A stretch of 61,340 nucleotides of DNA, filler included, from Dirinaria sp. TL-2023a (Eukaryota), in NCBI GenBank assembly GCA_051941275.1. It is 4 parts of 4 records of this genome, joined end to end, with 100 filler letters (N's around TTAATTAATTAA, not from the genome) between each part and the next. Parts side by side here need not be neighbours in the genome. Positions count along the whole stretch, not along the records: positions 30,793 to 46,044 come from JAVEBF010000557.1; 3 more parts are not named here. One strand, given 5' to 3'. A program made the translations under genes and the position numbers. Positions 3,001-51,589 of this stretch are shown here, one piece after another (the stretch's first letter is position 1; each line of letters starts with the position of its first letter). A model generated the notes under the pieces. It had not been told where the DNA came from. It worked only from the letters and a program-made list of their open reading frames with translations, and ran no database searches.

Positions 3001-3419
3001 GTCCTCACGCGCACATCATCGCCAACTGGAACGGCCGGACTTGACCGTGGTCGCGCATTGCTTTGGCTTGGGAGTGGTTTTCGGTCGTGCTGTGCAGGGC
3101 GCTGATCCGGAGAAGAAAAGGAGGAAATCGGTCTCTGGTTCTCGTCGCTGACGCTCGGCGCAGCTTTGAACGCGGCAGCAAGAGAACGTCCAGCAGTCGA
3201 AAATTGTCGGGATTTGCCACGGCCATGCTGGCGCTTCGGCGGACTCCTCGCTGGGCTGGGGCTGGGTACATAGGAGGTGTTGAGGCTCTCGGTGAAGAAT
3301 TCGGGCGGCTGCTGCGACGGCGCGATTCGACGTGATGCAAACAACGGTTGATCGCGTTTCAAGTTGGTGATGGACTCCTTCCTCTTTCTGGTGGGAACTT
3401 CTGGACTTGAGGGAGGCAT
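1..3419 (-). CDS. Conserved hypothetical fungal protein (~1139 aa, Ser/Pro/Arg-rich, C-terminal TM and Cys motifs); 3' end truncated at contig edge
   Basis: ATG at 3419. Hand translation of both ends is open in the same frame (SPPRGLAEAYQRIVDEE near the N-terminus; CTEAGEFHDFIWPCSKCG, TM LGLLLVLGTLWYVAE, CNIYCHPRYAY, GYGVDIYAPEPPF near the C-terminus). Seven Ser-rich + strand shadow ORFs (505, 871, 1165, 1495, 1813, 2326, 2617) all lie in the matching antisense register. Absent from the ORF track because there is no stop before position 1. The middle was not fully translated. Confidence 0.8.
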   Translation of the reverse strand, partial: MPPSSPEVPTRKRKESITNLKRDQPLFASRRIAPSQQPPEFFTESLNTSYVPSPSPARSPPKRQHGRGKSRQFSTAGRSLAAAFKAAPSVSDENQRPISSFSSPDQRPAQHDRKPLPSQSNARPRSSPAVPVGDDVRVRTPSPARGRDQSLVSPASSYHSQSSPPRGLAEAYQRIVDEESLAQEESIDGMDAYGYDYNEGPGDAELSGPDAISDTASPTSLKASRKASREPTPVRQYSDNKENSLQHSENGSQRSSLDETERSGDSRMSQYERDSQRLNGALRSNVKIFSKARVGERVGLTVENLRRRNDSSESLGSAFGGSISSRGTDPSLNLPKAWGRKAKPPKDWLSRINSKSGKLTGDVPTKQKADSPIIAESERREWDEPIDEWIQAAADVPLPSEENGSSQIRSSSMSNTSIPPNALRDRASGWDVDADFTGRSLQVSDSPPLRIRNVSSDETRNREIDRLEKSAVATSRLGEIRERTSRERLGQMTPQNGGRTSMQDRRRSISRSSRSSKREERLLDNRIEGTLEDDGKPIPDTPVVVYRSMPDLKKTSSSTDRHRDPAERPSPERHDSRDILQKLARATSASPVSTSEGHSTSIDARAQQRPGSVGLSGAKKERSSSREQNRPDISNDDLQTDKRMSQTAPQVEETPLPTKPKARLKTPHITGGWIDHTISEESPRPPVPNVTLKTPMVTGAWVDTPLPAGGRGPPMPTPNVEDDKDFILEGNEKRKLATSDLVKKLSPKYDTKPERSTTSRPLPKSALESVITAAKASLASGYQPGQNPLIAHSSDSEEEGAEEGSPLQLGESTIQSLEEILADNDNRSSLPSAPSPSASEENDETETPATDDLKPYTRQLSRLSALLPSIRDARKNIASLERAVASSTTNRNRTLTLAPQNKKGNNPPDSELAEPECTEAGEFHDFIWPCSKCGRRSPSSASPPSLITLNIFQSSSSSSSPSLTTISLPLPTLWRRRSSHSYIPRFTPLGLLLVLGTLWYVAETVTCNIYCHPRYAYAFDGYGVDIYAPEPPFVFEKMLWRWLGGEAGESVGVRAGGRERLRSSKRASLVEEEGAGWLDQIARGAYVLLRALGRLVALLWGGSRNDTGAGGQQQQQPIATDPRIPRPEYAPDLSMYQDD

Positions 3420-4517
3420 AACAACGGATTGGCGACTCGAGTTCCGCTAAGAATAGGTAGCATAGTTGTCATGCACCAATAGCGCAATAATGAGAAAGAT
3501 GGTCCGCATTCTCAAGTCTACACTGCGAAGATGTTTAGCCGGAGATGTTTCGCTTATCGTGCACCGGTGTATTAGTCAGCAGAACCAAGCCAGATGCACC
3601 AATCAAATTACATCATCATCACTTCATCATCACTCTGTCGCACTTCTACTTTACACAGTACTGCGATAGTCAAGTACTACTATGTACATCTCTACTCCCA
3701 GCAGTCTATCAACGCGACGACTCTGAGGCACAGCGAACGTCTGATCGACATCACAGCTTATTATCGCCTGGGCCGGCATTGTTCGAATTCAACCCCAAGC
3801 TCACAGGGAGCCAATGGTATTCGGTCTTCCAGCTCAGCGGGGCTCGCCAGGCTCCCGATGACGATGCTTGATCGCATCCTCTGGACCACTTGGACCGTTG
3901 AGCTATCTAGCAATGCCACTACAATGCCTAATATAGTCCATCAATCTCAACTTCTCCCACGGTTCCTGACTCCGCAACACGGTAGTACTATCGGCAACTG
4001 GACGGACGACATGCCGAGGCTTCGCCGTTATTTGCAGCCGTCCGAAGCGCGAACCAGATGATCCAGATCTCCTCACTCCTCATGCAAGCGATGCAGTCGA
4101 TCTGCGTACTCGCATTACTCTCCTTTCTCCTTACCTTATACATACTTCTACCCCGGACTCTTCCCTCATGACTGGATCTGACGTTACATCCATCGTTGCC
4201 ATGCTTCTTTCGGACTAGGTTGCACTCTCTGCCCGTTCAAGCGTATCGAAGGCTACCAGCCTTTTAGATGCATCCCCGGCTAAAAATGAGGGGAAGGCAA
4301 TATGTTCGTTTGGGGTAAGGTACACCGCTGATGTCTCCCCAAACTATCTCCTCCATCTACTGTCTCGTATAAGTGGAACATCCTAGCCCCATTGCTCAGT
4401 CATTTCTTCTCGCTTTCCACAGCATTATCCCGTTCTATGCTGCCTACTTCTAGGGATTTGGTTTTTTCCCATTTCTTCTCCCAGCTCGTGCCTCGTCCTT
4501 ACTGCAATCCATCCAGC

Positions 4518-10275: not shown

Positions 10276-13200
10276 ATGTATTTCAGCTACATTGCAACCG
10301 CGACGGTAGCCGTCGTGGGCTCCCTTTTTGCAAGCAGACATGAAAACATCGCTGCCCAACGCCACCAGGTCGCTCAAACTGGTGATTTTCAACCCCGCTG
10401 GGGGCTCAAATGCGATTCGGTCGCAGATTACATAGACGGGTTCGCGTCTGCCGAGTGCGGACCGTTTAAGTACGACCCCAAGCCTGACCAACATCTCTTC
10501 GCCGTAAATCACCCTGCTCCTGTTCAGGAGGTATTATCAGTGGTCGACACCAAAGCCAAGGATGATGACGAAGATGAAGACAGCAAAGGATCGCGTAAGT
10601 CTTGCTCTTTCCGACGTGGTGATCTACACTGACATGTTTTTAGTCTTGGGGTTATTACCATACTCTTCCCCGGGTTGCAACTGCGTACTCGACTCCACAG
10701 TTGGAGGTGGGAACGACGACAACGATGGATTTTGTAAGTCATGTGTTTTTTCCCCCCAAAGTGTTGATCTCAGCTGACAAATCTTTAGTCGCGGGTTTCC
10801 CCCTATCCCCTTGGGTGGGCTATGCCTTCATGACCGTGCTGGGCCTCGAGGTTGCGCTTGCTATCTTCGTCGCATGCGGCTTTATCCTGCTCATCGCTTG
10901 GTGGGTGTGCTCTCAGGCTGCCGGCTTCGTCAAACGTCTCTTCATCGCTTCCTCTACTTTATCACCTGCTCAGCGCGTGGCACGCCTTCACAATAAAGTG
11001 TTAAGGGCAGGTAGAGTTGAAGACGATGGGCAGTTGAGATACTCGCTGGACTCGATCGTGCAGTTCGATCAGAACATCACCACCAACAAGAACAATCTGG
11101 AAACCGAGCTCCGGACAAGAATTACTCAACATGACCAAGAGCTCCGGGATCGGGATACCGAGCTCAAGGATCGGGACACCAAGTTGAGTACCGCGGACGA
11201 CAAATATCAGCAGCTCCTCACCGAAACGGACAACAAGTACAAGCAGCTCGAGCAGCAGAAGCGCGACGAGGCAAAGCAATTCGCCGAGGACAAGTCGGAA
11301 TGGTCTGCCGTGCGCACCGACTTGGAGAAACAATTAGCTATAGGCGATGACACTGTGAACCTTTTGAACGATTTCCGAGAGCAGGACAGTAAAGCGAGAA
11401 AAGAAATCGAGAGAAAGGCCGCAATGTACAAGGATTGGTACGAAGATAGACGGGTCCGCGTCAAATATTTCCGGGATCTGAACGGCATGTTGGCCCAGGA
11501 TCTCGCAACAGCCAAAGCTCAAGCACCACGGATCGACACTGCAAAAGTGGACGAGTTGACCGCGCAACTCACGGAACTCCGCGCCCAACACGAAGACGTT
11601 CTCCTAACCCAAGGATGGAACCTGAGTGGGGCAAACATTCAGATCGGCCAACTCTCTCGAGAAGCAGCTCAGCTGCGTGAGCAGCTGACTGCGAAGAACG
11701 GAGAGTGTGGGAAGCTCGAGCAGCAGCTCAAGACGAAGACCGGAGAGAACGCCAAGCTCGAAGAGCAACTGAGTACGAAGACCGGAGAGTACAAGAAGCT
11801 CGAGGACATTCAATCCGAGCTCGGCAAACGACGTTCGCAATTACAAGCTCGGCTCAAGACGAGTTACTCCGAGAGGAACAAGACTGATCGGGAAGTGAAA
11901 CGGGTGAATCTCGAGCATGACAAGCTGAAGGGAGAATCCCAAGCGCTCAAGGCCCAGCTTGAATGCGCTCAACAAGAGATCGCGCTGTCCAGGATGCGCC
12001 ACACTCAAGCCGTTCAAGGTATTCAGGCCGAGCAGCGACTCAGGGCTCGAATCATTCGATCAGCCAATACACGTACTCGTGCTCTCCGCTCGAAGTTTGA
12101 GCGAAAACTTCGTCAACAACGTGAGCTGCTGCGTAAGCGATCGAACACGGAGGGGCAAAAGCCAAAGGAACCAGAGCCAGAGGCAGAATCTGGAGGGAAT
12201 GGCGATGATTCGCCACCACCAGGCCCGGCTCCTGGTCCTTCGAACCCAGTGCCCGCTCCAGAAGACTTGCCGGGTCCTTGGGAATTCCTTGGTGAGACGC
12301 CCCGCAGCCCGGGGGGAGGACTCGACTTCTCGTCGACCTTCCCGCCAATGTCGCCGATAGGGTCGATCCACAGCCTATCCTCCATGCCTCCGCCCTCCAT
12401 GCCTGAGTTCGGGTTTCTTGGCAACGAGCCCAGTGGGTCTTCGTCTGATCCGGCTGCTCCCACCTCTGCGCCTGGCCTCCCTCCCCAGGATTCTGCCCCG
12501 ACTAAAGAGACCGAGTCGTCAATTGATCCGGCAGCATTGGCATTGCCTGAGCCAACTCTGGAAGAAATCCAGTCTCTTTCGATGGATCCAGCTGTGATCG
12601 CTCTGCCTGAGCCAACCCCAGAAGAAGCGGAGTCTCTTTCGACGGACCCAGCGACGATCGCTTTGCCTGAGCCAACCCCAGAAGAAGCGGAGTCTCTTTC
12701 GACGGACCCGGCAACGATCGCTTTGCCCGAGCCAACTCCAGAAGAAGCGGAGTCTCTATCGACGGAGCCAGCAGTGATCGCTCTCCCTGAGCCAACACCG
12801 GAAGAGACCAAGTCTCTAGTCACGGAGCCAGCAGTGACTGCTCTGCCCGAGCCAACCTCGCAAGAGGCCGAATCTCTCACAACAGATCCAGCGGCAATTC
12901 CGATGCCTGATTCAAAGCCGGACGAGACCGAGTGCTTAATGAATGACTCAACCAAGACTTCCCCACCGCTGCCAACCGCTGCAGAGACCGTTGCAGAGAC
13001 CGCTGCAGAGACGAAGTCGCCGTCAACGCTGCCGAGTAATACTGAACAGGAGCAGCAGCCGCACGGGCAGCCGCACGAGGACACAGAAATGGCGGACAAT
13101 GATTCGCTTTTCGGAGGCTCGGACATGGACATCGATGATGTTCACGAGGGCAACGACGATGCATCGATGGAGGATCCCTCGCGTTCCGACGAGGATGAGG

Positions 13201-14546
13201 ACATGCCACCCGCTCCGCCGGCAGACGAGCATGGATCAGAAGACACTGACATGGCTCCAGCGCCACCAATGGAAGACCCGCCAGCTGCGCCTCAGCCAAT
13301 AGTAGCTGCACCACAGAATTGGCGTCCATCTCCTGTACCTCAGCCAGTAACAGCTTTAAGACAGAATTGGCGTCCATCCCCTGTGCCTCAGCCATTGGCG
13401 GCTGCACCATCCAGCTCGGTCATGGACTTTTACCGGAATAGGTACACCGCGCCCAGCGAACCACTTCCAGTCAATCCGGCGAACGAAAGTAGGGCTATTA
13501 CGGGCAATGCACCACGTGCAACCGGGGGCCGAGCACCAATTTACGACCCGTTGGGGAGAGGTGCCATGCCGGTTCCCGCTACAGCTCCGGCGACGCCGTC
13601 AATCCTTAGCTCCAGCGGAACTCGACCATCGGCAGTGTACGATCCACTGTCGATGAGCCCCAATCGGCCAGCTCCGGTCGCTGGACCGACACCGATCCCC
13701 CGCCTGACTCCAAGTCCACAGGGATCCGGTCCTTCCGGAGGTGCCTCCTTGGCTTCGTTGACATCGCCTGCGCCCTCGACCCCGATGCCTCAGCCCCGCT
13801 CCAACATCCCCGGCCTGTTCCTAAATGATCACTTCCCGGCGCCTGGATTCCGCTCCAGCCCTACTCCTGCACCGGCACCCGCTTCTCGTGCCGAGTCAAG
13901 CGAGGAAGGAGTTTCGAGCCAGTTACCTGCGGGTCGGAAGGTGCGAGAGATAAAGCGGATAAAGACATCGTCTTGCCAACCAGAGAACCGTAGAGCACCG
14001 CAAGGTGCTCCTGGCAAGGTTCAAACAACATCTGGTTCCAGCATTTTGGCCCAAGCGGCCTCCGCAGCCTCGGCCTTCCCAACGAACTACTCCTTTTCTT
14101 TTGGTGGTCCTTCGACTCAACCATCTGTCTCCTCCACGGCTCCGGCATCAACTGGCTCAATTTTTTCTTTTGGTGCCCAGCAACCTGGTGGAGAGGCAAA
14201 AGAGCCGGAGAAGTCTCTAAAGCAGAGACAAGAAGGACTCCATCAAGCTGAGGCAGAGTATAAAGTGGCACTGAGGAGCAAAGACGAGCTCACCATCGCA
14301 GAAGCCCGATTCAAGATGTCAGAAGCCAGACTGGCGTTGGCGAAATGCGGCAGAAACCAAATGATACGATTAAAAACTCAGGCTGAAGTGGCTGAAGACC
14401 GGTTGAAGCTTGCGAAGGTGCGCGGAGACGAAATTGCGATTGAGGCCGCTGAAATCTGGTCCAAAGAAGCGAAGCTGAAAGAGACGACATATCGGATGAA
14501 CCTCAAAGATTTGGCGGCCCGTGAAGAGGCAAGTCGGATGAACTGA
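10276..14546 (+). CDS. Orphan ~1390-aa protein: N-terminal hydrophobic leader, one TM region, long coiled coil, Pro/Glu-rich tandem repeats; exons 10276-10594, 10644-10733, 10789-14546
   Basis: Two GTAAGT...CTGAC...TAG introns (10595-10643, 10734-10788) join ORFs 10276, 10562 and 10701 in frame. TATTTAAA at ~10041 is followed by a CT-rich tract. TM: VLGLEVALAIFVACGFILLIAWWV. Confidence 0.8.
11676..11803 (+). repeat. ~3 x 42-nt in-frame repeat (14-aa double heptad, EQQLxTKTGExxKL)
   Basis: Units gagcagctgactgcgaagaacggagag, cagcagctcaagacgaagaccggagag and gagcaactgagtacgaagaccggagag recur at 42-nt spacing. Confidence 0.85.
12522..12941 (+). repeat. 7 x 60-nt coding tandem repeat (20 aa, TDPATIALPEPTPEEAESLS)
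   Basis: Units start at 12522, 12582, 12642, 12702, 12762, 12822 and 12882. Central units are near identical and the outer ones are diverged. Confidence 0.95.
13290..13410 (+). repeat. ~2.5 x 48-nt coding repeat (PQPxxAxxQNWRPSPV)
   Basis: cagaattggcgtccatc occurs twice, and cctcagcca occurs three times at 48-nt spacing. Confidence 0.8.
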
Positions 14547-35235: not shown

Positions 35236-37036
35236 CTAGGCCAGAGCGCCCATTGGGTCCCAGGGATCAAGACTATGATTTCACATTAGCATGATATTCC
35301 CGAAGAGGATCGGAGCATGCGCTGCCACATACATCCTTGGCTCTTTCTTGAGCACGTCCCGGACATCGCTTGACACAAACCTTGCAGCAAGTCAGTGGGA
35401 ACAGGATTCCTCATTCGGGAACGCCAACCGTACCTGGGATCAATAACAGCTTGATAGACAAATTGGTCCATCCATGCATCGCTCATGACAAACCAGCCCT
35501 TGGTGCCTGCTGTATCACCCCACGAGTTCTGGACTCGCCACCTCACCGGTTTGTCATCGACAACATGAACACCTGTAAGTACCATTGCGTGTGTCATCTG
35601 ACTCTCACCCGTCATCAGCCGTTGGGCTTTCGAAAGGCCGAAGCGGATGTTGAACCCCAATTCGTAGTCAATGGCATCAATATCCATGATCCCCGCAGAG
35701 GACTGCAGGAACTTCCCCACGTCACTGCCAAAGAAAACCGGTAAATCCTCCTTGAGCATGCCAATGCATGCTTTCTTGATCGTCGACATATCGACATTGA
35801 CATAGCGCGTCCCACGCATTCCGATGATGTTGCCGAGTCTGCTGACTCTGAGTTGATCCCCATACGGGTTCCTAGGGTCATTTACCAGACTGAATAACTC
35901 GTGAATATCCGAACCAGCATTCGCATGCACGGTAGCCTTGCTGGATAGTTCTGCAGCAAATTTCAATGGTGTAGTCTTGAGGCTGCCGAATTTTTCGTCC
36001 TTGTCGTAATATTCCCACGTTATCTCTCCGTTAGGATTTGGAGGTGGTCCAAGCATCAAGGTCAAGATCAGGTGGATCTCCCTCATCATTTTATCTTTCG
36101 CGCCTCCAACAGATGATTTCACGTCCCCAGATTCGCCTGCTAGCTTTCGCAGCTCAAGCGCATTTTCGCGGAGCTTTGTTGTAATCAGTGAGCTCATGGC
36201 ACTGGAGTTCATAGCGTTAAAGGAGTCTGGATAAAGGTGATGAGGAACCTGCGAGCCACCATCAGTCAATATTGGAGCAGTAGCAAAGTGACAATTGGGA
36301 GATGTACCAATCCGTATTTCTCCACCAGATTCGCGACCATATCCCATTGACCGCCATCGCCGACAGGAGAAGACAGCAGTTGCTGTACAAGCCTCCCATC
36401 CAGCGGCTCCTCAACCGTGTCTAGGATTTGCTCCAAAAAGTAGTTGGCTTTCTCGAGCTTATCCCAGAAGAACAAGTATGCCTGGCTCAACTCGAATTCC
36501 TTCAAATTATACTTCTTCATAATCGGGACACGGAAGACATTGGTGGCGGCGAAGAGCCAGCAGCGTCCCGAGGAGCGCTGGTTCGTGATCGGCGATCCTT
36601 CAAGGCTGATCTTGACATTGAAGTTCTGGGTATCGGAGATGTTGACGGAGCGTTGGGTAAGGATGTTCTGGATCTGGTTGGAAGACAGTGCAGCGAGGGC
36701 AAGCCGGTTCTGGTGTGCCCTTGTCAGCCAGCCAGCCAGCCATGCCGTGTAACAATTGTAAAGTCGCTAGGCTAGGTAGAGGTAAGGTAGCAAGATAGAT
36801 ACCTTCGGATCTTGCAGCAGCTCTTTCTCCCATTGCTCCGCGGCGGAGATGGAGACTGTCGGCGAGTACTTGCCGGCCGGGCGTTGTTTCGCATCACCGT
36901 TGACGTAGACATAATCTCTGTCGGATTCATGCGGGGTGGTCTCCTTGACTTCCAACGCTTGCAGCCTTTCCGCCAGCTGCTCCTGGTCCTGGACGGCAGG
37001 CCCGGCAGGCGGCGCCTTTGATATTCCAGCGCCCAT
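35236..37036 (-). CDS. LAP3: Bleomycin hydrolase / cysteine aminopeptidase (peptidase C1B), multi-exon
   Basis: Catalytic motifs NQRSSGRCWLFA (Cys), THAMVLTG (His) and WRVQNSWG (Asn); spliced C-terminus WDPMGALA. Confidence 0.95.
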
Positions 37037-37941: not shown

Positions 37942-39300
37942 TTATCGTGACAGCGGAGACTTGGGGAGAACGGGAAGACGTTTGTCGGTTGGGTTCCTGA
38001 CTCTCCGCCTGTATTTCGATTTGGGACGCGGCACAGGAGGCATGGACAAGGCTTGAGGCACAACGCTCGGCGCGATGGAGATCGACCTTGCATTGCCGAA
38101 CGTCCAATGCGACGATATCTCGGACGAGGCGAACGTGATATCCGACCGGTTGGACAGAACAGATGGACCTCGGTGAATGTCTCTGGTGGTTTTGGTGCTG
38201 CTTGAGGAATGGATGAATGACGAGTCTCGGACATTGGGGACGCTGGTGTCAATGCTTGGAGGTCGTGTCTTCCTACGCGGAGGTGACGCCGTTGGGGTTT
38301 GCCAGTAGCCTACACTCTGGTCTGCTTTTGCCATCTGTGGCTGTGTTTTTTGGGGCCGTATAGCGAGTGGAGGTACGACCAGCGGCGAAATCGGCTCGGA
38401 AACAATTGAGGAGGACGGGGAGTTCGAGAAGAAAGAGACTGGGTGATGGTAGTCATGCTCCTCGATAGACCTGCGAAAGCTATCACGATCGCCAACAAAC
38501 TTAGGAGGCGGGATCTCGATGGACTCAGGCAGACTTGTTTTGCGCACGCCTTCACTATGCCGTCGATGATCGGGGGACTCGAATGTTACTGTCTTTGGCG
38601 CAAGGTTTCTTGGTCGTCCCGTACTGTTTGATCGCCATGGTAGCGATCGAGGAGGCGATGCCTCACCATCTTCACGGTTTTTGGGCGGTTTCTGAGACAG
38701 CTTTCGCACAATGATCGGCCTTGACAAGGGGCTTGCCGGCAATTCCACAGGTTCTGTACCAGGGATCGCTGGCCCTTTGTATGCCTTCAACAAAGACTCT
38801 GTAATGGAAGCCTGTCTCTTCTTGTTGGTGCCTTGGAACTCGGGAGCGCGCAGAGACCCATTTGGCGATTGAAGACGCGACTCTCCCAAAGTTCGAAATA
38901 CCTTCTCGCTCAGCCTTCTCCGTTCCTTCTGATAATGTTGAGCTTCAAGATCTGTCGAAACAGCCGATATATGTTGGCCGGCGAGCCATAGCGGTGCAGG
39001 GTATTGCAACTCCTTCATATGCGAAGAATCTGTGGATCCCCCTGATCTCAATGTACTCAGGTCCTGCGAATTGAATTCGCCGCTGTCTCGATTACGAAAC
39101 GCGTCAGACAGCCGTACAACCCGTCCATTGCGGACCGTCATATGTCTTGTAGGTTGCCGAGCGCTTTCGGTGCTGCTGCGTTTTTGCTTTGTCTTGCGCC
39201 GTGTTCTCGACCTCGAATATTGGAAAGCGAGGATGATGAGCATCAAGGCAACGAAGAAAGCCAGTAGCGACAAAACGACTATTATGGGCAGGAACTCCAT
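37942..39300 (-). CDS. Hypothetical protein with a single N-terminal TM helix and a Ser/Pro/Arg-rich disordered tail
   Basis: 452-codon ORF from ATG 39300; TM PIIVVLSLLAFFVALMLIILAFQY followed by basic RSRTRRKTKQK. Confidence 0.75.
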   Translation of the reverse strand: MEFLPIIVVLSLLAFFVALMLIILAFQYSRSRTRRKTKQKRSSTESARQPTRHMTVRNGRVVRLSDAFRNRDSGEFNSQDLSTLRSGGSTDSSHMKELQYPAPLWLAGQHISAVSTDLEAQHYQKERRRLSEKVFRTLGESRLQSPNGSLRAPEFQGTNKKRQASITESLLKAYKGPAIPGTEPVELPASPLSRPIIVRKLSQKPPKNREDGEASPPRSLPWRSNSTGRPRNLAPKTVTFESPDHRRHSEGVRKTSLPESIEIPPPKFVGDRDSFRRSIEEHDYHHPVSFFSNSPSSSIVSEPISPLVVPPLAIRPQKTQPQMAKADQSVGYWQTPTASPPRRKTRPPSIDTSVPNVRDSSFIHSSSSTKTTRDIHRGPSVLSNRSDITFASSEISSHWTFGNARSISIAPSVVPQALSMPPVPRPKSKYRRRVRNPTDKRLPVLPKSPLSR

Positions 39301-41316
39301 TGCCGTTTCAACGACACGTGAATCCACGAACACAGGCTAAACCAGCATACGCACAAGCCCAAACTAGCATATCTTTGACAGAGCCAGCAAGGCAGAATTT
39401 AGACCGTTGAGGATCGTAATCAATTGCGATGTCGAGCTTGTGAAGCAGGTCGTGAGAGCCGAGGCTCTTCCTAGATACTCATCATTCACCTTTGAATGGT
39501 CTCGGTAGCTGCAGTGATACTCAGAAATATGGCTAGCGATAGCTTTCAATTGCAATATTGTGCAGCTTCATGTACAAAAGGTGGTTGAACTGCGTGGCAA
39601 AAAGAGCGGTGGATAGTGTATCGAAGCACTACTAATGAATGACTAGGATCGAAAAGAGCATAGAACAATCAGGAAAGATCGCCGCTGATCAAAAGAGAAT
39701 GAGGGATATACAACTCAAATGTATTCAATGCTCATAGGACCCTCGCTTCGAGCATGTCGGCAGCCGGCAGCGGATACTGGCATGCATATGTGGAGAACCC
39801 GGATCCATAAAGCAATATGAGATGGCCATCAGTCAGAGTCTGAACCATGCTACAGCCTCTGGATGATCGCATACTGCACGATCCTTCCGAGGACATAATC
39901 GCACAATAGGTAGCATTCTCGCAAGTAGCTAGTCGCAATTCGGTCTTAGACTGATAATCCTGTTCGTCGCTTCTTGAGTTCTGCAGCAATAGACACCTTT
40001 TTTTGCGTGGCTAGCCATCCTTCACCAGTCCCTGCATCTACTACAACTTAGCAGAGTAAATAACAGTGAAAAATGAATTTGACTTTCAAGCGCTATTGGA
40101 GCAAATACGCGATGTATATCGCCGTGGGTCCATCCCACGCGACATTCTTCATGATGTGAGCTCTATTACTTCTATACGCGAAGACAGTGCCACGCCGGCA
40201 AAGGTCGTAAAAGGTGGGAGTAATCGTCGGTCGCGACGAGCAGTCCAAACGTTTTTGCCACCAATGTTCTCTCTGTTCGTGGCGGATGTCGCATTCGCAT
40301 AAGGGCAACAGTAAAAAATTCATGAGAAAAGTGGTGGGGCATAGAAGTGACTAGGAACGTATGGCACTAAAAAAGGCCTTCTTCCGATATGAGCGCTTGC
40401 GCAAAGGGAAGGCTGACTGATCCGCCAGCTCAGCATGACTTGCATTATCTTGCCGCAGTAGAAGCATGAATGACGAAAGATCAGTGATCGGCCTTAAGCC
40501 TGCGAGATGACCGTTAGCTAGGTCACTTGGGACATGGATTCCGGAAGAGCAAACCGACGCCGTTCAACGGTGACCGTTACTGCTCGATTCACCGATTTTC
40601 GTCCGTTGTCTCTTTGAATTCCAAATTTAACCTCAAACAATCCGAGATGACTGAGTTGCCGCAAGCGAAGCTAGGATGTTAGAGGCACCTACTCTACTAG
40701 ATGATAAAGCTTTGACCTTTTATAAGCCGGATGCTCTTACCTCATCCGGTGCGCTTATGTCGTGGTCTCAGACGATCGTCGGCTACAACCCTGCAGGTCT
40801 GCTAATACCAGAATGAGGATCTTGTCCAAATTTTCCTCTTGATCCGCTTGATTGGGAATTGAGTTTCCTGAACAGGCTCTTGTACAGTAGTAGGATGGTA
40901 TCCGAACAATGGAGTAGGATACAATTCGGCTGGCCGTCCGTGTCATCAACACTCAATGCCTGCAAGGTCGTAATAGTCTTAAGTCAATTGAATTGCCGCT
41001 TCCTCCAATCCAAATAATTTTACGGTTGCAAGATGATTGCCAACTTGGGCGCACAGTACATTCATTTGGTCCTAACAAGTAGCGAAATTGTCCAAATTTC
41101 ATATGACATCTGGGCTGTCCTTATCCAATCATCTTAGGATGCCGGATCGACCAATAAGTGACTGACTTCTCCAGCATATCCACAAGAGCTTTGAAATTCT
41201 TCTCTCTTCACCCAGATTCTCTCGTCCATAGAAAAAGACACCTCCATTGTTCCATCAGGCAATTTTTAGGCTTTCTATAGTTCAATCACCCCCGAGCTCG
41301 AGTTCTTCGTCTCACT

Positions 41317-43380
41317 TCATTTTCGTTGGGATCTTAGCTGTCTTGGACTTAGGCTTTTCGATCTAACCCGGCCAGGACTGTTTTTTGGTCTCTTGTTTGA
41401 GGCGGAGCTTGAATCTTGGCAAAAGGACCGTTTTGGGTGCAAAAGCTGTTCCTGCGACAAGACGTTATTGATCTCTGCTCGGATCCACTCGGCGTTTATT
41501 CGAGCTTTTGCTGGATTTATGCGCTCAAAGAAGAGTAAGTCGCACCCGTTGGACCAGGGAGGTGGTACTTTGTCTTCTGACCGGTATGGCGGCACACCCC
41601 CAATGACGGAGCCATTGAGTCGCATGCCGTCGTAAATAATTAATTTCGACGGATCCCCAACGCTGCGATCCGACCAGTAGACTCGGAAGTGTCTATTGTG
41701 TTCATAAATACCGCCCAGCCATCGGTAATGAGCTGTTTGTAGACCGTTTTGATTGTGATATTCGACGGACACGCAGCTGGCCGTGGACCCAATGAGGTTC
41801 CTGTCCTTGGGAATGGGAGTCTCGCCACTTTTCACCGACGGTATTGTAGGCGTAGGTAAGACTAATCGATAAGGCAATTCACCCTGGATGATTCTAGTCC
41901 GGAATGTTTGCCCCTCACAGCCCCTTCCTCTGCAGCGCCGCCATGGCCTTGGACTAAAGTGCTTTTGGAAAAGGCTTGAGATAGCTTGGGGCTCTCCTTT
42001 CTTCCAGTCATCCATACTTGGAGCGTCGAATTCAAGCACATTGCTCTTTTGGGAATTTGCAGATGCTGTTTGTGGCGACACTCTTGAGCATTTCTCGCAC
42101 GTAGTTTGCTGGTAGCAAGAGTACTCGAATTGACGAAAGCCGTGTGCACATATCTGCCAGGAGTCGTTGGCAGCAAGCATAGATCCGGGTCTACAACCTC
42201 GCCCTAATTCAGTCCTGTGATCATAGTATTGCTTCAAAAAGTTATCTCGACATCTGATGTTTGCATTGATTCCGTAAATCTCCCAAGGCATTGCCACGAC
42301 GTCCCGGAAAGCCTTTTGGAATGAGGTAAAACCCTCTAGAGCTGAGTTCGACACGTCCGCGCTGGTCTGTCCCACATCCATCAGCCGAGCAGCAACTATA
42401 CAACAATCGACATGACACGAATTTCGTGACCATATAGGCCCTCGGCCACGGTAAGGTACAGGATGACCTGTTCTTGAACATCGATAGAAGTGAGGGTCAG
42501 TATTTTGGCCGCGGACGAATTCAACTTGAATTGCAGTGATGCTTGGATCAACTTTGTCATTGAATAAGGACTCAAACGCTTTTTGATCCACAATTGTTTT
42601 AGTTACCGGAGTACGTCTCGTTGGCAGCAGTCTGGAACAACGCTCCGCTATCTGTAGGTTAGCATCGGTTACATCTAGAATTACACGTTTCATTAAATAT
42701 CGTAGATTGTCTGCAGCAGAGATAGGTCTAGGATGGACAGCAGCATTGACTAGGGATACTTGGATGGGCGAGGAAGCATCCGACGGGATCGAGATTGCGC
42801 TCAATGGCTGTTTCGGTGGCATTGTAGCTTCGACATCCGGTCTTGATGTACGCGAAGTCTCATTTGCAGTTGTTAGACCGGAGGTCTCGTCCCCTTCAGG
42901 TAGTGGCGTATTGTTTCGGGAAGACGGAGCATTGACTAGATCTGAAGAAGACTGTGGTGTACCTTGCAGTTGCGGTGACCCTTGCGTGTTCTTAGGAGTC
43001 TGTGAAGGAGACTCCTCTAGATCTCCCGACTCTGAGGACTTCTCTACTGCATCTTTATGTGCTATTTCGCTAACCTGTTCTTCTCGTATATGTTCGTCAT
43101 TTTCTCTCAGTTGCCCAGTTGTCTGAGCTTCAGCATCCTGAACGGCTGCTCTTCGGAAGCATATCGCTGCGTAGGCTTCTTCATCTGTCAACTGGGGTCG
43201 GTAGTCGTCCAGGACTTGCATTGCTCGGAAGATCAAACTCTGCCTTCGCGTTCCGGTGGTCGGCTTAGATCCTCCATAGGTAGTTATGATCTTGTGCAGA
43301 CCGGCTATCGTTGCAGCGTGTTGATTCCAATACTGGATGTTGTGACCACGCCAGATGTCTCTTCGGGGAGCTGGCTCCAT
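41317..43380 (-). CDS. Orphan 687-aa protein, putative USP/PLpro-fold cysteine protease with a zinc ribbon
   Basis: Intronless ORF; GPIWSRNSCHVD (C322), CEKC...CRGRGC, GIYEHNRHFRVYW (H564), LIIYDGM (D584); basic C-terminus. The CDS call is firm; the function is inferred. Confidence 0.7.
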   Translation of the reverse strand: MEPAPRRDIWRGHNIQYWNQHAATIAGLHKIITTYGGSKPTTGTRRQSLIFRAMQVLDDYRPQLTDEEAYAAICFRRAAVQDAEAQTTGQLRENDEHIREEQVSEIAHKDAVEKSSESGDLEESPSQTPKNTQGSPQLQGTPQSSSDLVNAPSSRNNTPLPEGDETSGLTTANETSRTSRPDVEATMPPKQPLSAISIPSDASSPIQVSLVNAAVHPRPISAADNLRYLMKRVILDVTDANLQIAERCSRLLPTRRTPVTKTIVDQKAFESLFNDKVDPSITAIQVEFVRGQNTDPHFYRCSRTGHPVPYRGRGPIWSRNSCHVDCCIVAARLMDVGQTSADVSNSALEGFTSFQKAFRDVVAMPWEIYGINANIRCRDNFLKQYYDHRTELGRGCRPGSMLAANDSWQICAHGFRQFEYSCYQQTTCEKCSRVSPQTASANSQKSNVLEFDAPSMDDWKKGEPQAISSLFQKHFSPRPWRRCRGRGCEGQTFRTRIIQGELPYRLVLPTPTIPSVKSGETPIPKDRNLIGSTASCVSVEYHNQNGLQTAHYRWLGGIYEHNRHFRVYWSDRSVGDPSKLIIYDGMRLNGSVIGGVPPYRSEDKVPPPWSNGCDLLFFERINPAKARINAEWIRAEINNVLSQEQLLHPKRSFCQDSSSASNKRPKNSPGRVRSKSLSPRQLRSQRK

Positions 43381-44064
43381 TCTAGCTGACCGTCTCCAGA
43401 TTCATATTTTACACTCACAAGGCGTTAAGGTAAGTCATTGCGGACAAGCGCTTCGGACTTCAATAGGTCTAGGATGGCTTGAGAAGCAGAGAGCGGGGAG
43501 TGCCTTGGAAATGAAATTCAAAGGACTTGACCACACTAGAGAAGCATGCATTGTGAACAAAGGAGAAGATCCCTTCACTTAGATGGATATGGGAGGGAGG
43601 GCTCACGACCGGATCCGGCGAGTCTGAGCAAAGCCTACCATCAGTGAGTCCAATCTTCGTGCGCTTCATGGCACACAGCACATTTATATCAGCAATTTTC
43701 TACTCGTAAGCTGTCCGAAGTCAGCATCTCTGAGGAACTGCAAATGTGAGTGAACTGCCGGACCAGGTCTAGGGTTAGGCTCAGCAATGGTCGTTCGATT
43801 GATTACGTAAGATACAATCTATTTAGGGTTTGCATAAGGTAAGCCCACCAGACATCAGCACACCAACTTGGCACCAACATCTTTTCGCTGAATGATGCCT
43901 CCAAGTCAACAGAAGACGATTGAAAGGGCTTCATCAGAGGGCCCTATTAGTGATCAAAGCTCTCGCTGACTGTATTACCTGCACTCCTCGTTCCTGCGAT
44001 TTATGATTCAGACAGACGGCTATCGGGTTGCAATCAGTTCTCCGTCATGGGCATAGATCTAGGA

Positions 44065-45252
44065 TCACTGTCTTTCCGCTGTGATGATGTCGCGCCAATT
44101 GCTGCCAAACTTTGCAGACCAGATCCTGTCAATCCGGTCCGCTATTCTCTCACTGGCGTCCCTCCAGGTCTCCCAGTAATTGGTGGCTGCCAAGGATTCT
44201 TTTTCGTGTTCGGCGAGGGTTGTAATCTCGAAACAACTTCCTGCCCAGCTATCAAAATAGTTTTTGTGCGTGTTATCCATTGCGCAATTCTCCTTTGTAA
44301 ACCAGCATATAAATGACCAGACCACTTCGCCAAAACCTAAATAGTCAATCCGTGGTCCGTGAATATATTCAGGCTTGAGTGCAATTGCTTCAGAGCGGAC
44401 AAACTCATGCGTCCTCAGGTTCCGAAGGACCCACGGTTGATCCTCCGGATACAAAGTGGCCATGTCGTATTCGTCTAGGTCTTCGCAGATTCGAGATTGG
44501 AAGTTTTCTGGGAGGCGAGACCACTCTCCGAGCTTCAAGGCGAGATGTCTAAAATGATGAGACGGCCGATATTCCCGATCTTTGTAATTCTGATGTGGCA
44601 CGTACGCTACGGAATGTTGGCGTGGATATTCACGGTAGGGTTCATCTGAATCAGGGTCAAAACATCCATCTTCACTCAATTGCTCCTGCAATTGTTCTAC
44701 CTCACTGTCGGTGAGTAGGATGAGGGGGACATCCGTCGGCTCCGAATCATTTGCCACGCCGACGATACATTGTCGAGCCCAAGAACCGCAGGGAGCGACA
44801 TTCATAGCTCGAATATGCCTGTGGGCAACATTCCACAACGATTGACTCTGGATACCGAGGACAAACAAATCTCTAATACCAAGGTATTGGAATACTTCAT
44901 CAAGCAATTCGATTGGAAGACTCGACAATCCGGATGTGCCTCCAACAGCACGTAAAGTGTTGGTTCCGTCAAGACTTGAACATTCACGCTTCAGCTCGCT
45001 CGTCGTAGTGCCTCGCACAGGCGGTGTATAAAGTTCTTTGCTATACGGACGGTTAGCGAAAGCTCGCATGCATGATAGTACTTGGCCGGGGACTTGGATC
45101 AGATCAATTTGGCGATATTTGGAAGCTTGGGGCACCGCAAGATGCATCACGAAGGCCGCTGGCGATCCATCAAACAGGACGTCGTCATACTTGCCATGGA
45201 TATCAAGTTTCTCCCTTCGCGGTAATGCAATGATTCTCCAATCCTCACCCAT
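44065..45252 (-). CDS. F-box domain protein (fungal family with WVLRNL...ICW...WAG motifs)
   Basis: F-box LSSLPIELLDEVFQYLGIRDLFVLGIQSQSLW; GSWARQCIVGV; WVLRNLRTHEFVRSEAI; GFGEVVWSFICW; WAGSCFEI. Confidence 0.8.
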   Translation of the reverse strand: MGEDWRIIALPRREKLDIHGKYDDVLFDGSPAAFVMHLAVPQASKYRQIDLIQVPGQVLSCMRAFANRPYSKELYTPPVRGTTTSELKRECSSLDGTNTLRAVGGTSGLSSLPIELLDEVFQYLGIRDLFVLGIQSQSLWNVAHRHIRAMNVAPCGSWARQCIVGVANDSEPTDVPLILLTDSEVEQLQEQLSEDGCFDPDSDEPYREYPRQHSVAYVPHQNYKDREYRPSHHFRHLALKLGEWSRLPENFQSRICEDLDEYDMATLYPEDQPWVLRNLRTHEFVRSEAIALKPEYIHGPRIDYLGFGEVVWSFICWFTKENCAMDNTHKNYFDSWAGSCFEITTLAEHEKESLAATNYWETWRDASERIADRIDRIWSAKFGSNWRDIITAERQ

Positions 45253-45727
45253 TTCAGCTAGGTGTTAAATATCGAACCAGTAAAGGATAAGTAGTGGATC
45301 TTTCCGAAATGACAATGACATGGATAAGACTCGAGTATATATAATGAGGAAAGAAAAGTAAGGCATCTGTGAGTCGCGCCGCATTATTTGAGTGATCCTT
45401 GTCCATCCGTCCCCGAATTCAACAACTTAACACTCGGGTGTTCGGGCTGAGGAGGGCGCCTTCATCACGTGCATGAAGTCTTTTGTACGGTTGAATCGAC
45501 ATCTATAACACATGTGTTATGTACATGATATGTCTATGAAGACATATCTCCTCCCATTCCGTCATCATGCTAATGGAATCCTTAACAAAGCGACTTTGCA
45601 GGTAAGGGCCCACCTATCGCAGCATTGTAAATCCACACTTCCAAACCAATCCAAACCCAGATCCATCCAAGACTCAGCAGCAGCCCGGTTTCCCAACCAC
45701 CACCACTACCAAGCCACCATCCCAACA

Positions 45728-49773: not shown

Positions 49774-51589
49774 TTATAAAGGACCCAAGCCTAAGCTTCT
49801 CACGACTCTCGCCTCATCCGCCTGCCGCTCTAAAGCCCTTCTCATCCTTTCTTGCATTTCCCTCTCTTCTCTTGCTTGGTCGTCCAGAAGTTCTCCCTGC
49901 CACGGACCAAAGCGAGGATTCTTTCGAAAGCCTACGATGCCGATCTTTTCACCGGTCCATACTGCCAGTTCACTTCGTGGCCCATCGTGGAAAGGCACGA
50001 TCTTTCGAGCCACGTGGCCTGAAGCTGCTGCGCTTGGGGCAGCAAAGATTCCTCGCCGTAACTCGTGATCGACGTCTTCATTGATATTCCATCTCCGTAC
50101 AAGCGTGCGTCCATCCCTCTCTACCCATTTCAGCATTCCGTCTCCGTCGCTGAAGACGATGCATCTACCGTGCGACGAAACGGACAGCAACTTCGAGCTT
50201 GAGGCCGAAGTGCGGTTGAAAGAACTGGTTTCCCGAGAAAACGGATACCTGCCGGAATGTGGAATGGCGTACATATCCAGAGCGCCTTTGCCATTGTATT
50301 CACCGCAGGCAATAAGATCATTCCGATCGGGAGACGAGAAGCATGCAAGGCTCGACAGCTTAGCGCCACTGTAGCTTGTCCCATACAGTTTCGGGAACGT
50401 GCGTCGATCATAAGTCATTATAACTGGAAAGCGCCCAGCCACTTTGATAGATTCGCTAAAAGGAAGATGAAGGATGGAGAGCGGGCAGGTGTGTGATAGG
50501 GGAGCCGCCAGCTCCGATGGGTCCCCAGAGAGGAGACGGTGAAAGTTTGCGGAGCTATCGCGGCCGGCAGATGGTAAAGAGGCGCCAGAATCAAGCCTGC
50601 CATCGTGAGCGTCGGTACCGGACGAGGTATTCTTTGACCAGCGCGGGTCATGTAGATGGAGGCTCAGGGTGGTCCCAACCGTGAGAGGGGATGGGTAGTC
50701 TATCTCCGAGAGAGCGGAGATGGGTGACGGGTATCTATAGTGTGAAACAAGCTGTAGAGTCTCGAGGTCCACCTCATTCAAACCATTCTGTACGGCGAAG
50801 TAGGCTTTGCAACGATGTCTGTCTACGCTTACACACTCCACAGGCGTAGTGCTCATTGCTTTCTCGCTTGTCTGAGTGACTTGGGATGACGAAGGTCTTT
50901 GTGTTCCGTTGGCGGTGAGAAGTCCTCGCTTGCTGGTGGCTATGATGTTCCCACAGATCCGACTCGCCGGTCCGTTGTCGCGCCCAACGTTCCATATCGA
51001 GACACTGCCGTCTTCTCGCGGAGCTACGATTTGCTCCCCGGCCGCGCCAAACACACCTAATCCTCTGATCTCATAATGGTCGTCGTCATATGCTGTTTCA
51101 TCGCGTAATGCCGGTTGCAGCCAGCTTAGAGAAAGGGGCGCGTGCCTGGCAACGTAATCGGCGTACCAGTCGAAGTCTTCCGCAGGAATAGCATCATTAG
51201 GCCTCCACACAATATCGTCGCTGAGAGACCGTTCCCTGGGTATTACTACAAAGGGTTCAGACGCTGAGCCCCCGCCGTTTTGTGCGGCAGAGCGCGCCGC
51301 TGCCCTCAGTTGGATAATTGCAGGGTCATGGACAGGGACGGGACCTCCAGAAAGTAATTCTTGTCTTATTAATCGTGCGAGAGCTGAATATGAGCCTTCG
51401 TTCAATGTCAATTTCCTCCACAGCTCACTGCCACGGGCGACCTTAAGGAAGAGTTTCGAAACTAGGTGAAGGTTGATGAGTTCATGTGGGTTCAAGTCTG
51501 TAAAACTATCAGCATGAGTCTTTCATATCGCAGTGAGGTAAATTACAGGAAAGGATATGTAGTAGAAGCTCATCTGGAAGAGTGTCCAT
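49774..51589 (-). CDS. F-box protein with probable beta-propeller (WD40-like) C-terminus; exons 51547-51589, 49774-51497
   Basis: Spliced F-box MDTLPDELLLHILSYLNPHELINLHLVSKLFLKVARGSELWR; WD-like APREDGSVSIWN and VFSDGDGMLKW. Confidence 0.85.

Follow-up and report, generated by a model that had tools for sequence, protein, structure and literature searches.

This study analyzed a 61,340-nucleotide stretch of DNA from Dirinaria sp. TL-2023a (GenBank assembly GCA_051941275.1), hereafter the window, which consists of parts of four records joined end to end. At 41317..43380 on its minus strand (record JAVEBF010000557.1), the window carries one copy of a gene for a 687-residue protein, P0001, with a predicted domain that adopts the fold of the ubiquitin-specific proteases (USPs). 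It is a member of what is best characterized as a divergent, fast-diverging, and so far undescribed family of the USP fold. We consider it rather likely that P0001 is an active isopeptidase for ubiquitin (Ub) or a ubiquitin-like modifier (Ubl), and the function that the model suggests is that of a papain-type cysteine isopeptidase.

Predicted fold of the conserved domain

Residues 290-640 of P0001 were modeled with AlphaFold2 (AF2) without templates, by using an alignment (A3) of the window domain and 88 relatives. The model had a mean predicted local distance difference test (pLDDT) score of 93.5 and a predicted template modeling (TM) score of 0.91, with 281 of the 351 residues at a pLDDT of 90 or higher. 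A Foldseek search of the PDB returned at least 500 matches (419 at E ≤ 1e-3), and the 40 best matches listed were USPs or USPL1 throughout. The top match was USP30 (E 2.2e-11), with TM scores of 0.55 when normalized to the query and 0.67 when normalized to the target. The 998 best Foldseek chains were then aligned by using VIA-align, and 457 reached Z ≥ 8; the best 50 listed were USPs with Z scores of 19.0-20.6, USP30 (5ohk_A) having a Z score of 20.6 and a root-mean-square deviation (rmsd) of 4.1 Å over 277 aligned residues.

An exhaustive VIA search of 48,161 representative chains, which was independent of Foldseek, found just 49 chains at Z ≥ 8. Ranks 1-35 were all USP-fold proteins (Z 14.9-20.3), and the scores included 16.6 for CYLD, 16.4 for USPL1, 15.1-16.6 for the pseudo-enzyme PAN2, 16.4 for the yeast splicing factor 4msx, and 16.1 for 6ah0_W. 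The coronavirus papain-like proteases (PLpro) scored 8.9-12.3 over 169-207 aligned residues, TssM 12.2, the leader protease (Lpro) of foot-and-mouth disease virus (FMDV) 10.9, and the rubella protease 8.8. When BFVD was searched with Foldseek, the best matches were giant-virus USPs (E 4.2e-11), and coronaviruses appeared from rank 25 (E ~1e-5, query-normalized TM 0.34-0.38). Because of these Foldseek, VIA, and BFVD rankings, the modeled domain is read as a complete USP fold far nearer to cellular USPs than to PLpro, and we regard its assignment to the USP fold as secure. A preliminary description of the gene, made from the sequence, had proposed a protease with features of both USPs and coronavirus PLpro. 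The USP fold was borne out, the structural matches of the model including USPs, USPL1, CYLD, and PLpro. The likeness to PLpro held for the Trp five residues before the presumed nucleophile (position -5), which is the sole PLpro-specific trait, but not for the domain as a whole, with Z scores of 8.9-12.3 against about 20, over 260-287 aligned residues, for cellular USPs.

The same alignments located the presumed nucleophile. By range arithmetic on the VIA rows, C322 (model residue 33) lands on C77 of USP30, C276 of USP2, C450 of USP35, C146 of Ubp8, C114 of USP14, and C1716 of papain-like protease 2 (PLP2) of mouse hepatitis virus (MHV), and the titles of these entries name mutants at those very residues (C77A, C276S, C450S, C146A, C114S, and Cys1716Ser). 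Two PLpro entries (C111S and C101S) were one residue off, and six of the eight placements were exact; the arithmetic counts from the first aligned residue of each row and assumes that the first 11-15 aligned residues are free of gaps. The preliminary description had assigned C322 to the catalytic-Cys position, and the six solved enzymes agree with this assignment.

The domain resembles the canonical USPs (MEROPS C19; PF00443 UCH and PF13423 UCH_1), such as USP30, USP2, USP21, USP35, USP1, USP46/12, and Ubp8, over its entire length (Z 19-20.6, rmsd 3.1-4.5 Å, 254-287 residues aligned). As in these enzymes, the first thumb helix begins with a Cys, which coincides with the catalytic Cys of the solved structures; the fingers carry, as judged by sequence, a four-Cys zinc ribbon; a His and then an Asp are predicted on consecutive palm strands; and there is a C-terminal LFYER strand. 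Unlike the canonical USPs, with which it shares 9-14% identity in structural alignments, the domain goes unmatched by Pfam, has a short hairpin before the putative catalytic His, and has Trp at position -5 and Asp at Cys+3, where USPs have Asn at both positions. Its family also differs in that the named members are confined to three classes of Pezizomycotina and in that some members lack the Cys.

Among the known relatives of the fold, the SUMO-specific isopeptidase USPL1 (MEROPS C98; PF15499) is likewise a divergent USP fold missed by the USP sequence models. The likeness of the domain to USPL1 (Foldseek E 7.5e-10; Z 16.4 over 243 aligned residues) lies approximately 4 Z units under that to canonical USPs and below that to 25 other representative USP chains, and the Peptidase_C98 model does not match P0001. 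Excerpts of PMC8983731 present USPL1 as a case in which the USP fold can be retargeted to another modifier. The coronavirus PLpro and PLP2 (MEROPS C16) share with the domain the thumb-palm-fingers arrangement, the zinc ribbon, the Trp at position -5, and, in MHV PLP2, a nucleophile that coincides with C322. They differ in the low scores given above and in that P0001 is encoded by a stand-alone chromosomal fungal open reading frame (ORF) rather than within a polyprotein, with syntenic relatives and no kin on viral contigs.

Sequence comparisons connected the family with USPs through the fingers. A family profile searched against the PDB aligned with Ubp8 (E 0.006) and with USP9X and USP18 (E 0.6-1.2) over a region spanning both CxxC knuckles of the fingers, and the LPxRLVV strand after the knuckles was also aligned with the fingers of these three proteins. 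The C-terminal W...LFYER of the family was aligned with W...ILFYER of USP9X. Profile A1 matched USP18 and USP46 in the PDB at E 0.6-2.2. UCH_1 was found below its cut-off of 22.2 bits in 3 of the 45 long relatives (14.7-17.3 bits) and in the ORF of one metagenomic locus, L010 (19.8 bits). In a set of 5.8 billion proteins, profile A3 gave 48 matches, all of them family members and none with a precomputed Pfam domain; this search therefore offers no sequence bridge to the canonical USPs. In the Atlas, UCH clusters appeared at scores of 0.90-0.93, and the nearest candidate look-alikes were Basidiomycota clusters with a score of 0.95. A PDB search with the single protein gave protegrins and the phiKZ polymerase at E 0.5-0.7, which were set aside as chance matches. 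Profile A3 also matched 7kp2_A, a "putative pterin binding protein," at E 0.089, the Y-R-G-R-G-P-x-W-S of the family resembling R-x-R-G-P-I-W-S; this match is probably due to chance.

Putative active-site residues and their conservation

A motif script and a recheck of the translation placed every motif listed in the preliminary description at its residue, with consistent window coordinates: GPIW at 314, NSC at 320-322 (Cys322), CEKC at 428-431, CRGRGC at 483-488, YRWLGG at 552, His564 within HNRH, and LIIYDG at 580-585 (Asp584). The span described there, 41317-42460, corresponds to residues 308-687 and the stop codon, that is, to the conserved domain and the tail. All of the features below lie on the minus strand. 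The Cys box YRGRGPIWSRNSCHVDCCIVAARL (residues 310-333; 42382..42453) contains W317 (42430-42432) at the oxyanion position, five residues before C322 (42415-42417), which is the putative nucleophile and the first residue of helix 322-333. The first zinc-ribbon knuckle, CEKC (residues 428-431; 42088..42099), was aligned by the family profile with the first CxxC of Ubp8, USP9X, and USP18, and the second, CRGRGC (residues 483-488; 41917..41934), with the second CxxC of Ubp8 (E 0.006); the second knuckle is CxxC in most relatives, as opposed to CRGRGC in P0001. A zinc ribbon had been proposed earlier, and the alignment of the four fingers Cys with the knuckles of Ubp8, USP9X, and USP18 supports it at the level of sequence.

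The His box YRWLGGIYEHNRHFRVYWS (residues 552-570; 41671..41727) contains H564 (41689-41691), the putative general base, which opens strand 564-570 after the hairpin. In LIIYDG (residues 580-585; 41626..41643), located by the motif script and by conservation, D584 (41629-41631) directly follows strand 580-583 and is the putative third residue of the triad. In the full-length AF2 model, H564 and D584 are the start and the end of consecutive strands. A Cys at the start of a helix, with His and Asp on strands, is the arrangement of papain-like and USP enzymes.

Conservation was assessed in an alignment of 130 rows, comprising the window domain and 129 of 171 relatives; the other 42 (near-duplicates, fragments, and partial hits) were dropped by eye before the catalytic columns were inspected. 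The column of C322 held Cys in 96 rows, Ser in 24, Ala in 4, Thr in 3, and Gly in 3, and that of H564 held His in 111, Arg in 11, Asn in 3, Gln in 3, and Glu in 2. Asp was found at D584 in 127 rows, and Y583 was conserved in 128. The zinc-ribbon Cys were retained in 126 (C428), 130 (C431), 112 (C483, with 17 gaps), and 124 (C488) rows; D325 was invariant (Asp in 130/130); and the neighbors of the His were similarly constant (Y552 128, W554 130, R566 122, and W569 124). The preliminary description had presented His and Asp as triad members, and both proved conserved and at the expected strand positions. The complete Cys, His, and Asp set is present in 92 of the 130 rows, and Cys is absent from 34.

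Cys and His occurred together in 94 rows, Cys alone in 2, His alone in 17, and neither in 17 (Fisher's test p 3.6e-10, the kinship of the rows not being allowed for). On a FastTree tree constructed with the three trait columns removed, the Cys changed state at least 12 times and the His at least 14 times. In 8 independent pairs differing in Cys, the His followed the change in 3.5 (mean), ran against it in 0.3, and stayed as it was in 4.3. These sequence comparisons suggest that catalysis has clearly been given up repeatedly within the family. In most lineages the pattern is consistent with a functional Cys-His pair, the His decaying after loss of the Cys, a coupling that is not statistically established.

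Ser was by far the commonest stand-in for C322 (24 of the 34 rows without Cys), and half of the Ser rows, 12 of 24, retained both His and Asp. The Ser-for-Cys members may be dead enzymes or serine hydrolases.

We further examined the oxyanion position. The Cys box of USPs follows the pattern G-L-x-N-x-G-N-[TS]-C, in which the Asn at -5 is the oxyanion-hole residue, and to our knowledge a Trp solution to the oxyanion hole is otherwise known from coronavirus PLpro. GPIWSRNSC of P0001 lines up on this pattern without gaps, and W317 thus falls on the position of the oxyanion Asn. Trp occupied this column in 102 of the 130 members, and Asn was absent from the eight commonest residues listed, in agreement with the earlier claim that Trp replaces the USP Asn. 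According to excerpts of PMC11266423, W106 of SARS-CoV-2 PLpro, five residues before C111, is the oxyanion-hole residue and tolerates only Gln, Asn, Tyr, Phe, or Ala. The position of W317 suggests a corresponding role in P0001.

In the mechanism that we propose, H564, oriented by D584, would take the proton from C322, which lies where the first thumb helix begins, and the oxyanion hole would be formed by the indole of W317, standing in for the Asn that is usual in USPs. Ubiquitin or a ubiquitin-like modifier would sit on the fingers and palm, its C-terminal tail being threaded to C322 and cut from the substrate.

The substrate could also lie outside the ubiquitin family. An active USP-fold cysteine protease might, for example, cut a different protein at a short Gly-Gly-like site, in the manner of PLpro and the FMDV leader protease on polyproteins. 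The processing proteases among the structural matches (PLpro, FMDV Lpro, and the rubella protease) accord with such a role, as does the divergence of the family, which is too great for the Pfam USP models. However, the fingers subdomain, which in USPs holds the ubiquitin globule, is retained in full together with its zinc ribbon and is strongly conserved, and USPs bound to Ub, ISG15, SUMO, or Fubi matched the model approximately 8 Z units better, over alignments approximately 70 residues longer, than the processing proteases did. The Trp of the PLpro type in 102 of 130 members (see the excerpts of PMC11266423) is a further point in favor of a different substrate, and on balance we consider this reading very unlikely.

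The repeated losses of Cys bear on a different alternative, in which P0001 would be a noncatalytic pseudo-deubiquitinase similar to PAN2 (USP52) or Sad1/USP39, a sensor or scaffold that binds Ub, a Ubl, or another partner and whose triad is vestigial. These proteins have a noncatalytic USP fold, which parallels the Cys-less members of the family (34/130; a further count is the 19/130 without His), and their chains are good structural matches. The at least 12 and 14 state changes of Cys and His are in keeping with it, as are D325 and C431, which at 130/130 each outdo the nucleophile in conservation, and the fast divergence of the domain, which is 31-53% identical at syntenic loci where CDC45 pieces are 80-89% identical. 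By contrast, P0001 itself retains C322, H564, D584, and W317 at the oxyanion position, and, as far as Pfam reveals, it has no attached nuclease or partner domain. The full triad in 92 of 130 rows and the His in 94 of the 96 Cys rows would be difficult to account for unless catalysis were under selection in most lineages, and active USPs score higher (Z 19-20.6) than the pseudo-enzymes (Z ~16). We consider the pseudo-enzyme reading fairly unlikely for P0001 and favor an active isopeptidase.

Several results nevertheless weigh against an active isopeptidase. A common fold is no proof of function, and solved pseudo-enzymes also match the model well (PAN2 up to Z 16.6 and 4msx Z 16.4). Pfam, including UCH, UCH_1, and Peptidase_C98, gives P0001 no match at E ≤ 10, and by its sequence the protein falls outside the Pfam USP families as now defined. 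At the level of sequence, the sole link to USPs, at E 0.006, is marginal and confined to the fingers, outside the Cys and His boxes. About a quarter of the aligned members (34/130) lack the Cys, and because this residue changes state at least 12 times, catalysis appears dispensable in parts of the family. The co-loss of Cys and His was not significant when kinship was allowed for, in an underpowered comparison (median sign-test p 0.25).

Size, spread, and meaning of the family

The preliminary description had called the protein an orphan, a view that the searches contradicted. Residues 290-640 matched 42 proteins among the 90% clusters at E ≤ 1e-3, the query counted, the best relative having an E value of 1.1e-207 and 82% identity. 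When 1.84 billion representatives (50% identity) were searched exhaustively with phmmer, 225 matched at E ≤ 1e-3, 185 at E ≤ 1e-10, and 70 at E ≤ 1e-30. None of the 225 representatives carried a precomputed Pfam domain, and all of the names given were "hypothetical" or "uncharacterized." The named organisms were Aspergillus, Penicillium, Penicilliopsis, Paecilomyces, Emydomyces, Coccidioides, Brigantiaea, Letrouitia, Xylographa, and Cirrosporium. Three of them were looked up and belong to Eurotiomycetes, Lecanoromycetes, and Xylobotryomycetes, and we take the others to be members of the same three classes.

P0001 is unannotated, as had been claimed, because Pfam gives no match. No account of the family turned up in literature searches outside subscription journals and supplements. 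Among deubiquitinases, the USP-fold enzymes form the largest class, and annotation of fungal genomes counts them through Pfam or PROSITE matches; the family is therefore absent from deubiquitinase inventories, since such counts miss it and its named members read as hypothetical. If active, it would give fungi, lichen-formers, Onygenales, and Eurotiales among them, an additional Ub/Ubl protease of restricted lineage. Because its nucleophile has been lost repeatedly, the family offers a natural series in which to follow the transition from USP to pseudo-enzyme. The finding broadens a known kind of system and does not establish a new one; the gain in annotation is solid and the novelty modest.

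Gene structure, genomic setting, and origin

The gene, at 41317..43380 on the minus strand, is a single uninterrupted ORF that encodes 687 amino acids from the first ATG, followed by a stop codon, and spans 694 codons from stop to stop. The claim that it is intronless thus holds so far as the sequence reveals. The relatives are continuous across residues 192-651, and three related metagenomic loci (L001-L003) also match residues 10-80 in the same frame. Because the relatives reach E 1.1e-207, the representatives number 225, and the motifs are the best-conserved columns, we read 41317..43380 as a real chromosomal gene of a Pezizomycotina fungus and, on this sequence evidence, dismiss a chance ORF.

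Four parts are predicted for the protein: a helical domain at its N-terminus, a long linker without order, a USP-fold domain (approximately 330-420 residues), and a basic tail. A full-length AF2 model, constructed from a 39-row alignment, had a pLDDT of 74.9. The small N-terminal domain (residues 7-86; 43123..43362, minus strand) had pLDDT values of 81-95 (10-residue block means over residues 11-80), with helices at 15-21, 25-36, 46-59, 66-73, and 81-88, and had no Pfam match. When relatives were sought for residues 1-95, P0002 alone emerged, and the domain was found in the closest relatives only, namely P0002 and L001-L003 (42-44% identity). The linker (residues 87-217; 42730..43122, minus strand) is rich in Ser, Thr, Pro, Gln, and Glu, is predicted to be disordered (pLDDT <50, without secondary structure), and is unconserved among relatives.

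The USP-fold domain, together with an N-terminal extension and a C-terminal helix, covers residues 222-647 (41440..42717, minus strand), as delimited by AF2, Foldseek, and VIA. Solved USPs align with its core, residues 307-624 (41509-42462, minus strand); the VIA rows span model residues 17-335. In the full-length model, the extra elements start at residue 222 and run into the USP core, and a long C-terminal helix (623-647) is followed by a disordered basic tail. This tail (residues 650-687 and the stop codon; 41317..41433, minus strand) is rich in Ser, Arg, and Lys, with pLDDT <50 at residues 656-662, 664-679, and 684-687.

The window reads as ordinary chromosomal DNA of a fungus, with neither a transposase nor a viral hallmark among its genes. 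Besides P0001, it encodes a sugar transporter, a homoserine dehydrogenase, an FAD oxidoreductase, a metallophosphoesterase, a kinesin, a bleomycin-hydrolase-like C1 peptidase, a photolyase, two F-box proteins, and a zinc alcohol dehydrogenase. The GC content near the gene was 0.48-0.49, matching its surroundings, and 39300-45300 contained no direct or inverted repeats of 20 nucleotides or longer. A scan of IMG/VR gave 8 pattern matches and 0 relatives.

A metagenome scan identified 18 related loci with 28-59% identity, which stem from a few assemblies and do not represent 18 independent genomes. Fourteen of them (L001-L011, L013, L014, and L016) share a neighborhood marked by CDC45, Ccdc124/Oxs1, and two unannotated genes; CDC45 lies within 6 kb in 12 of the 14, and others have Ccdc124/Oxs1 or the same downstream genes. 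The remaining four (L012, L015, L017, and L018) have a peroxidase neighbor, joined in two of them by carboxypeptidase Y and ribosomal S13/S18. The window copy falls outside both neighborhoods: none of the six window neighbors tested was shared with any of the 18 loci, and the window contains no CDC45. Within the CDC45 group, the USP-like domain was 31-53% identical, the CDC45 pieces 80-89%, and another unannotated neighbor 38-61%. Because of these ranges, the family is judged to diverge fast relative to an essential gene but not beyond some other neighbors.

In a more specific reading, P0001 would represent a separate USP-fold peptidase family, so far known only from some Pezizomycotina, that would have a PLpro-type Trp oxyanion hole, evolve fast, and have lost its nucleophile many times. 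It would serve a nonubiquitin modifier (SUMO, NEDD8, or an unrecognized fungal Ubl) or the sensing of conjugates, and an ancestral CDC45 site would hint at a role linked to replication or the cell cycle. We consider this composite proposal quite unlikely.

The preliminary description had also raised a mobile or viral origin, which in its plainest form would be a recent gain from a virus or mobile element, either PLpro-like or a giant-virus USP. The absence of introns and the isolation of the window copy from the neighborhoods of all 18 related loci are compatible with such a gain, as are the good BFVD matches of giant-virus USPs and the Trp at position -5 that SARS-type PLpro also has, in the excerpts mentioned above. 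The giant-virus matches were, however, no better than those of cellular USPs, and coronaviruses entered the BFVD results only from rank 25. IMG/VR yielded no relative, the gene lacks flanking repeats and matches the GC content around it, and its neighbors, which include the kinesin, peptidase, photolyase, F-box, and metabolic genes, are of a housekeeping kind. The two shared neighborhoods (14 and 4 of the 18 loci) persist across 28-59% identity. We consider a recent viral or mobile gain extremely improbable. Because of the neighbors, the GC content, the lack of repeats and of viral kin, and the synteny of the relatives, the evidence favors vertical inheritance of a chromosomal gene, relocated at least once, over a mobile or viral insert.

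An F-box gene lies directly upstream of the USP-like gene (44068-45252, minus strand; 21.1 bits against a cut-off of 20.5), and a second F-box-like ORF is found approximately 6 kb further on (49777-51522, minus strand). In a distant relative of 1551 residues (P0121), a USP-like domain and an F-box (28.7 bits) occur in one predicted protein. A functional link with the F-box neighbor was considered and dropped, as this neighbor recurs at none of the 18 related loci and the similarity between the two F-box proteins is limited to the motif (E 0.04).

The bleomycin-hydrolase-like gene (Peptidase_C1_2) is a second papain-clan cysteine peptidase, approximately 5 kb from the USP-like gene. It extends over two overlapping frames, 35289-36410 and 36269-36766 (both on the minus strand), with profile positions 16-152 and 152-415, a split most simply explained by an intron. 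Two long frames, 10644-14543 (plus strand, 1300 codons) and 3-3446 (minus strand, 1148 codons), had no Pfam match at E ≤ 1e-4; the former sits in the GC-richest part of the window (0.596 at 12001-14000).

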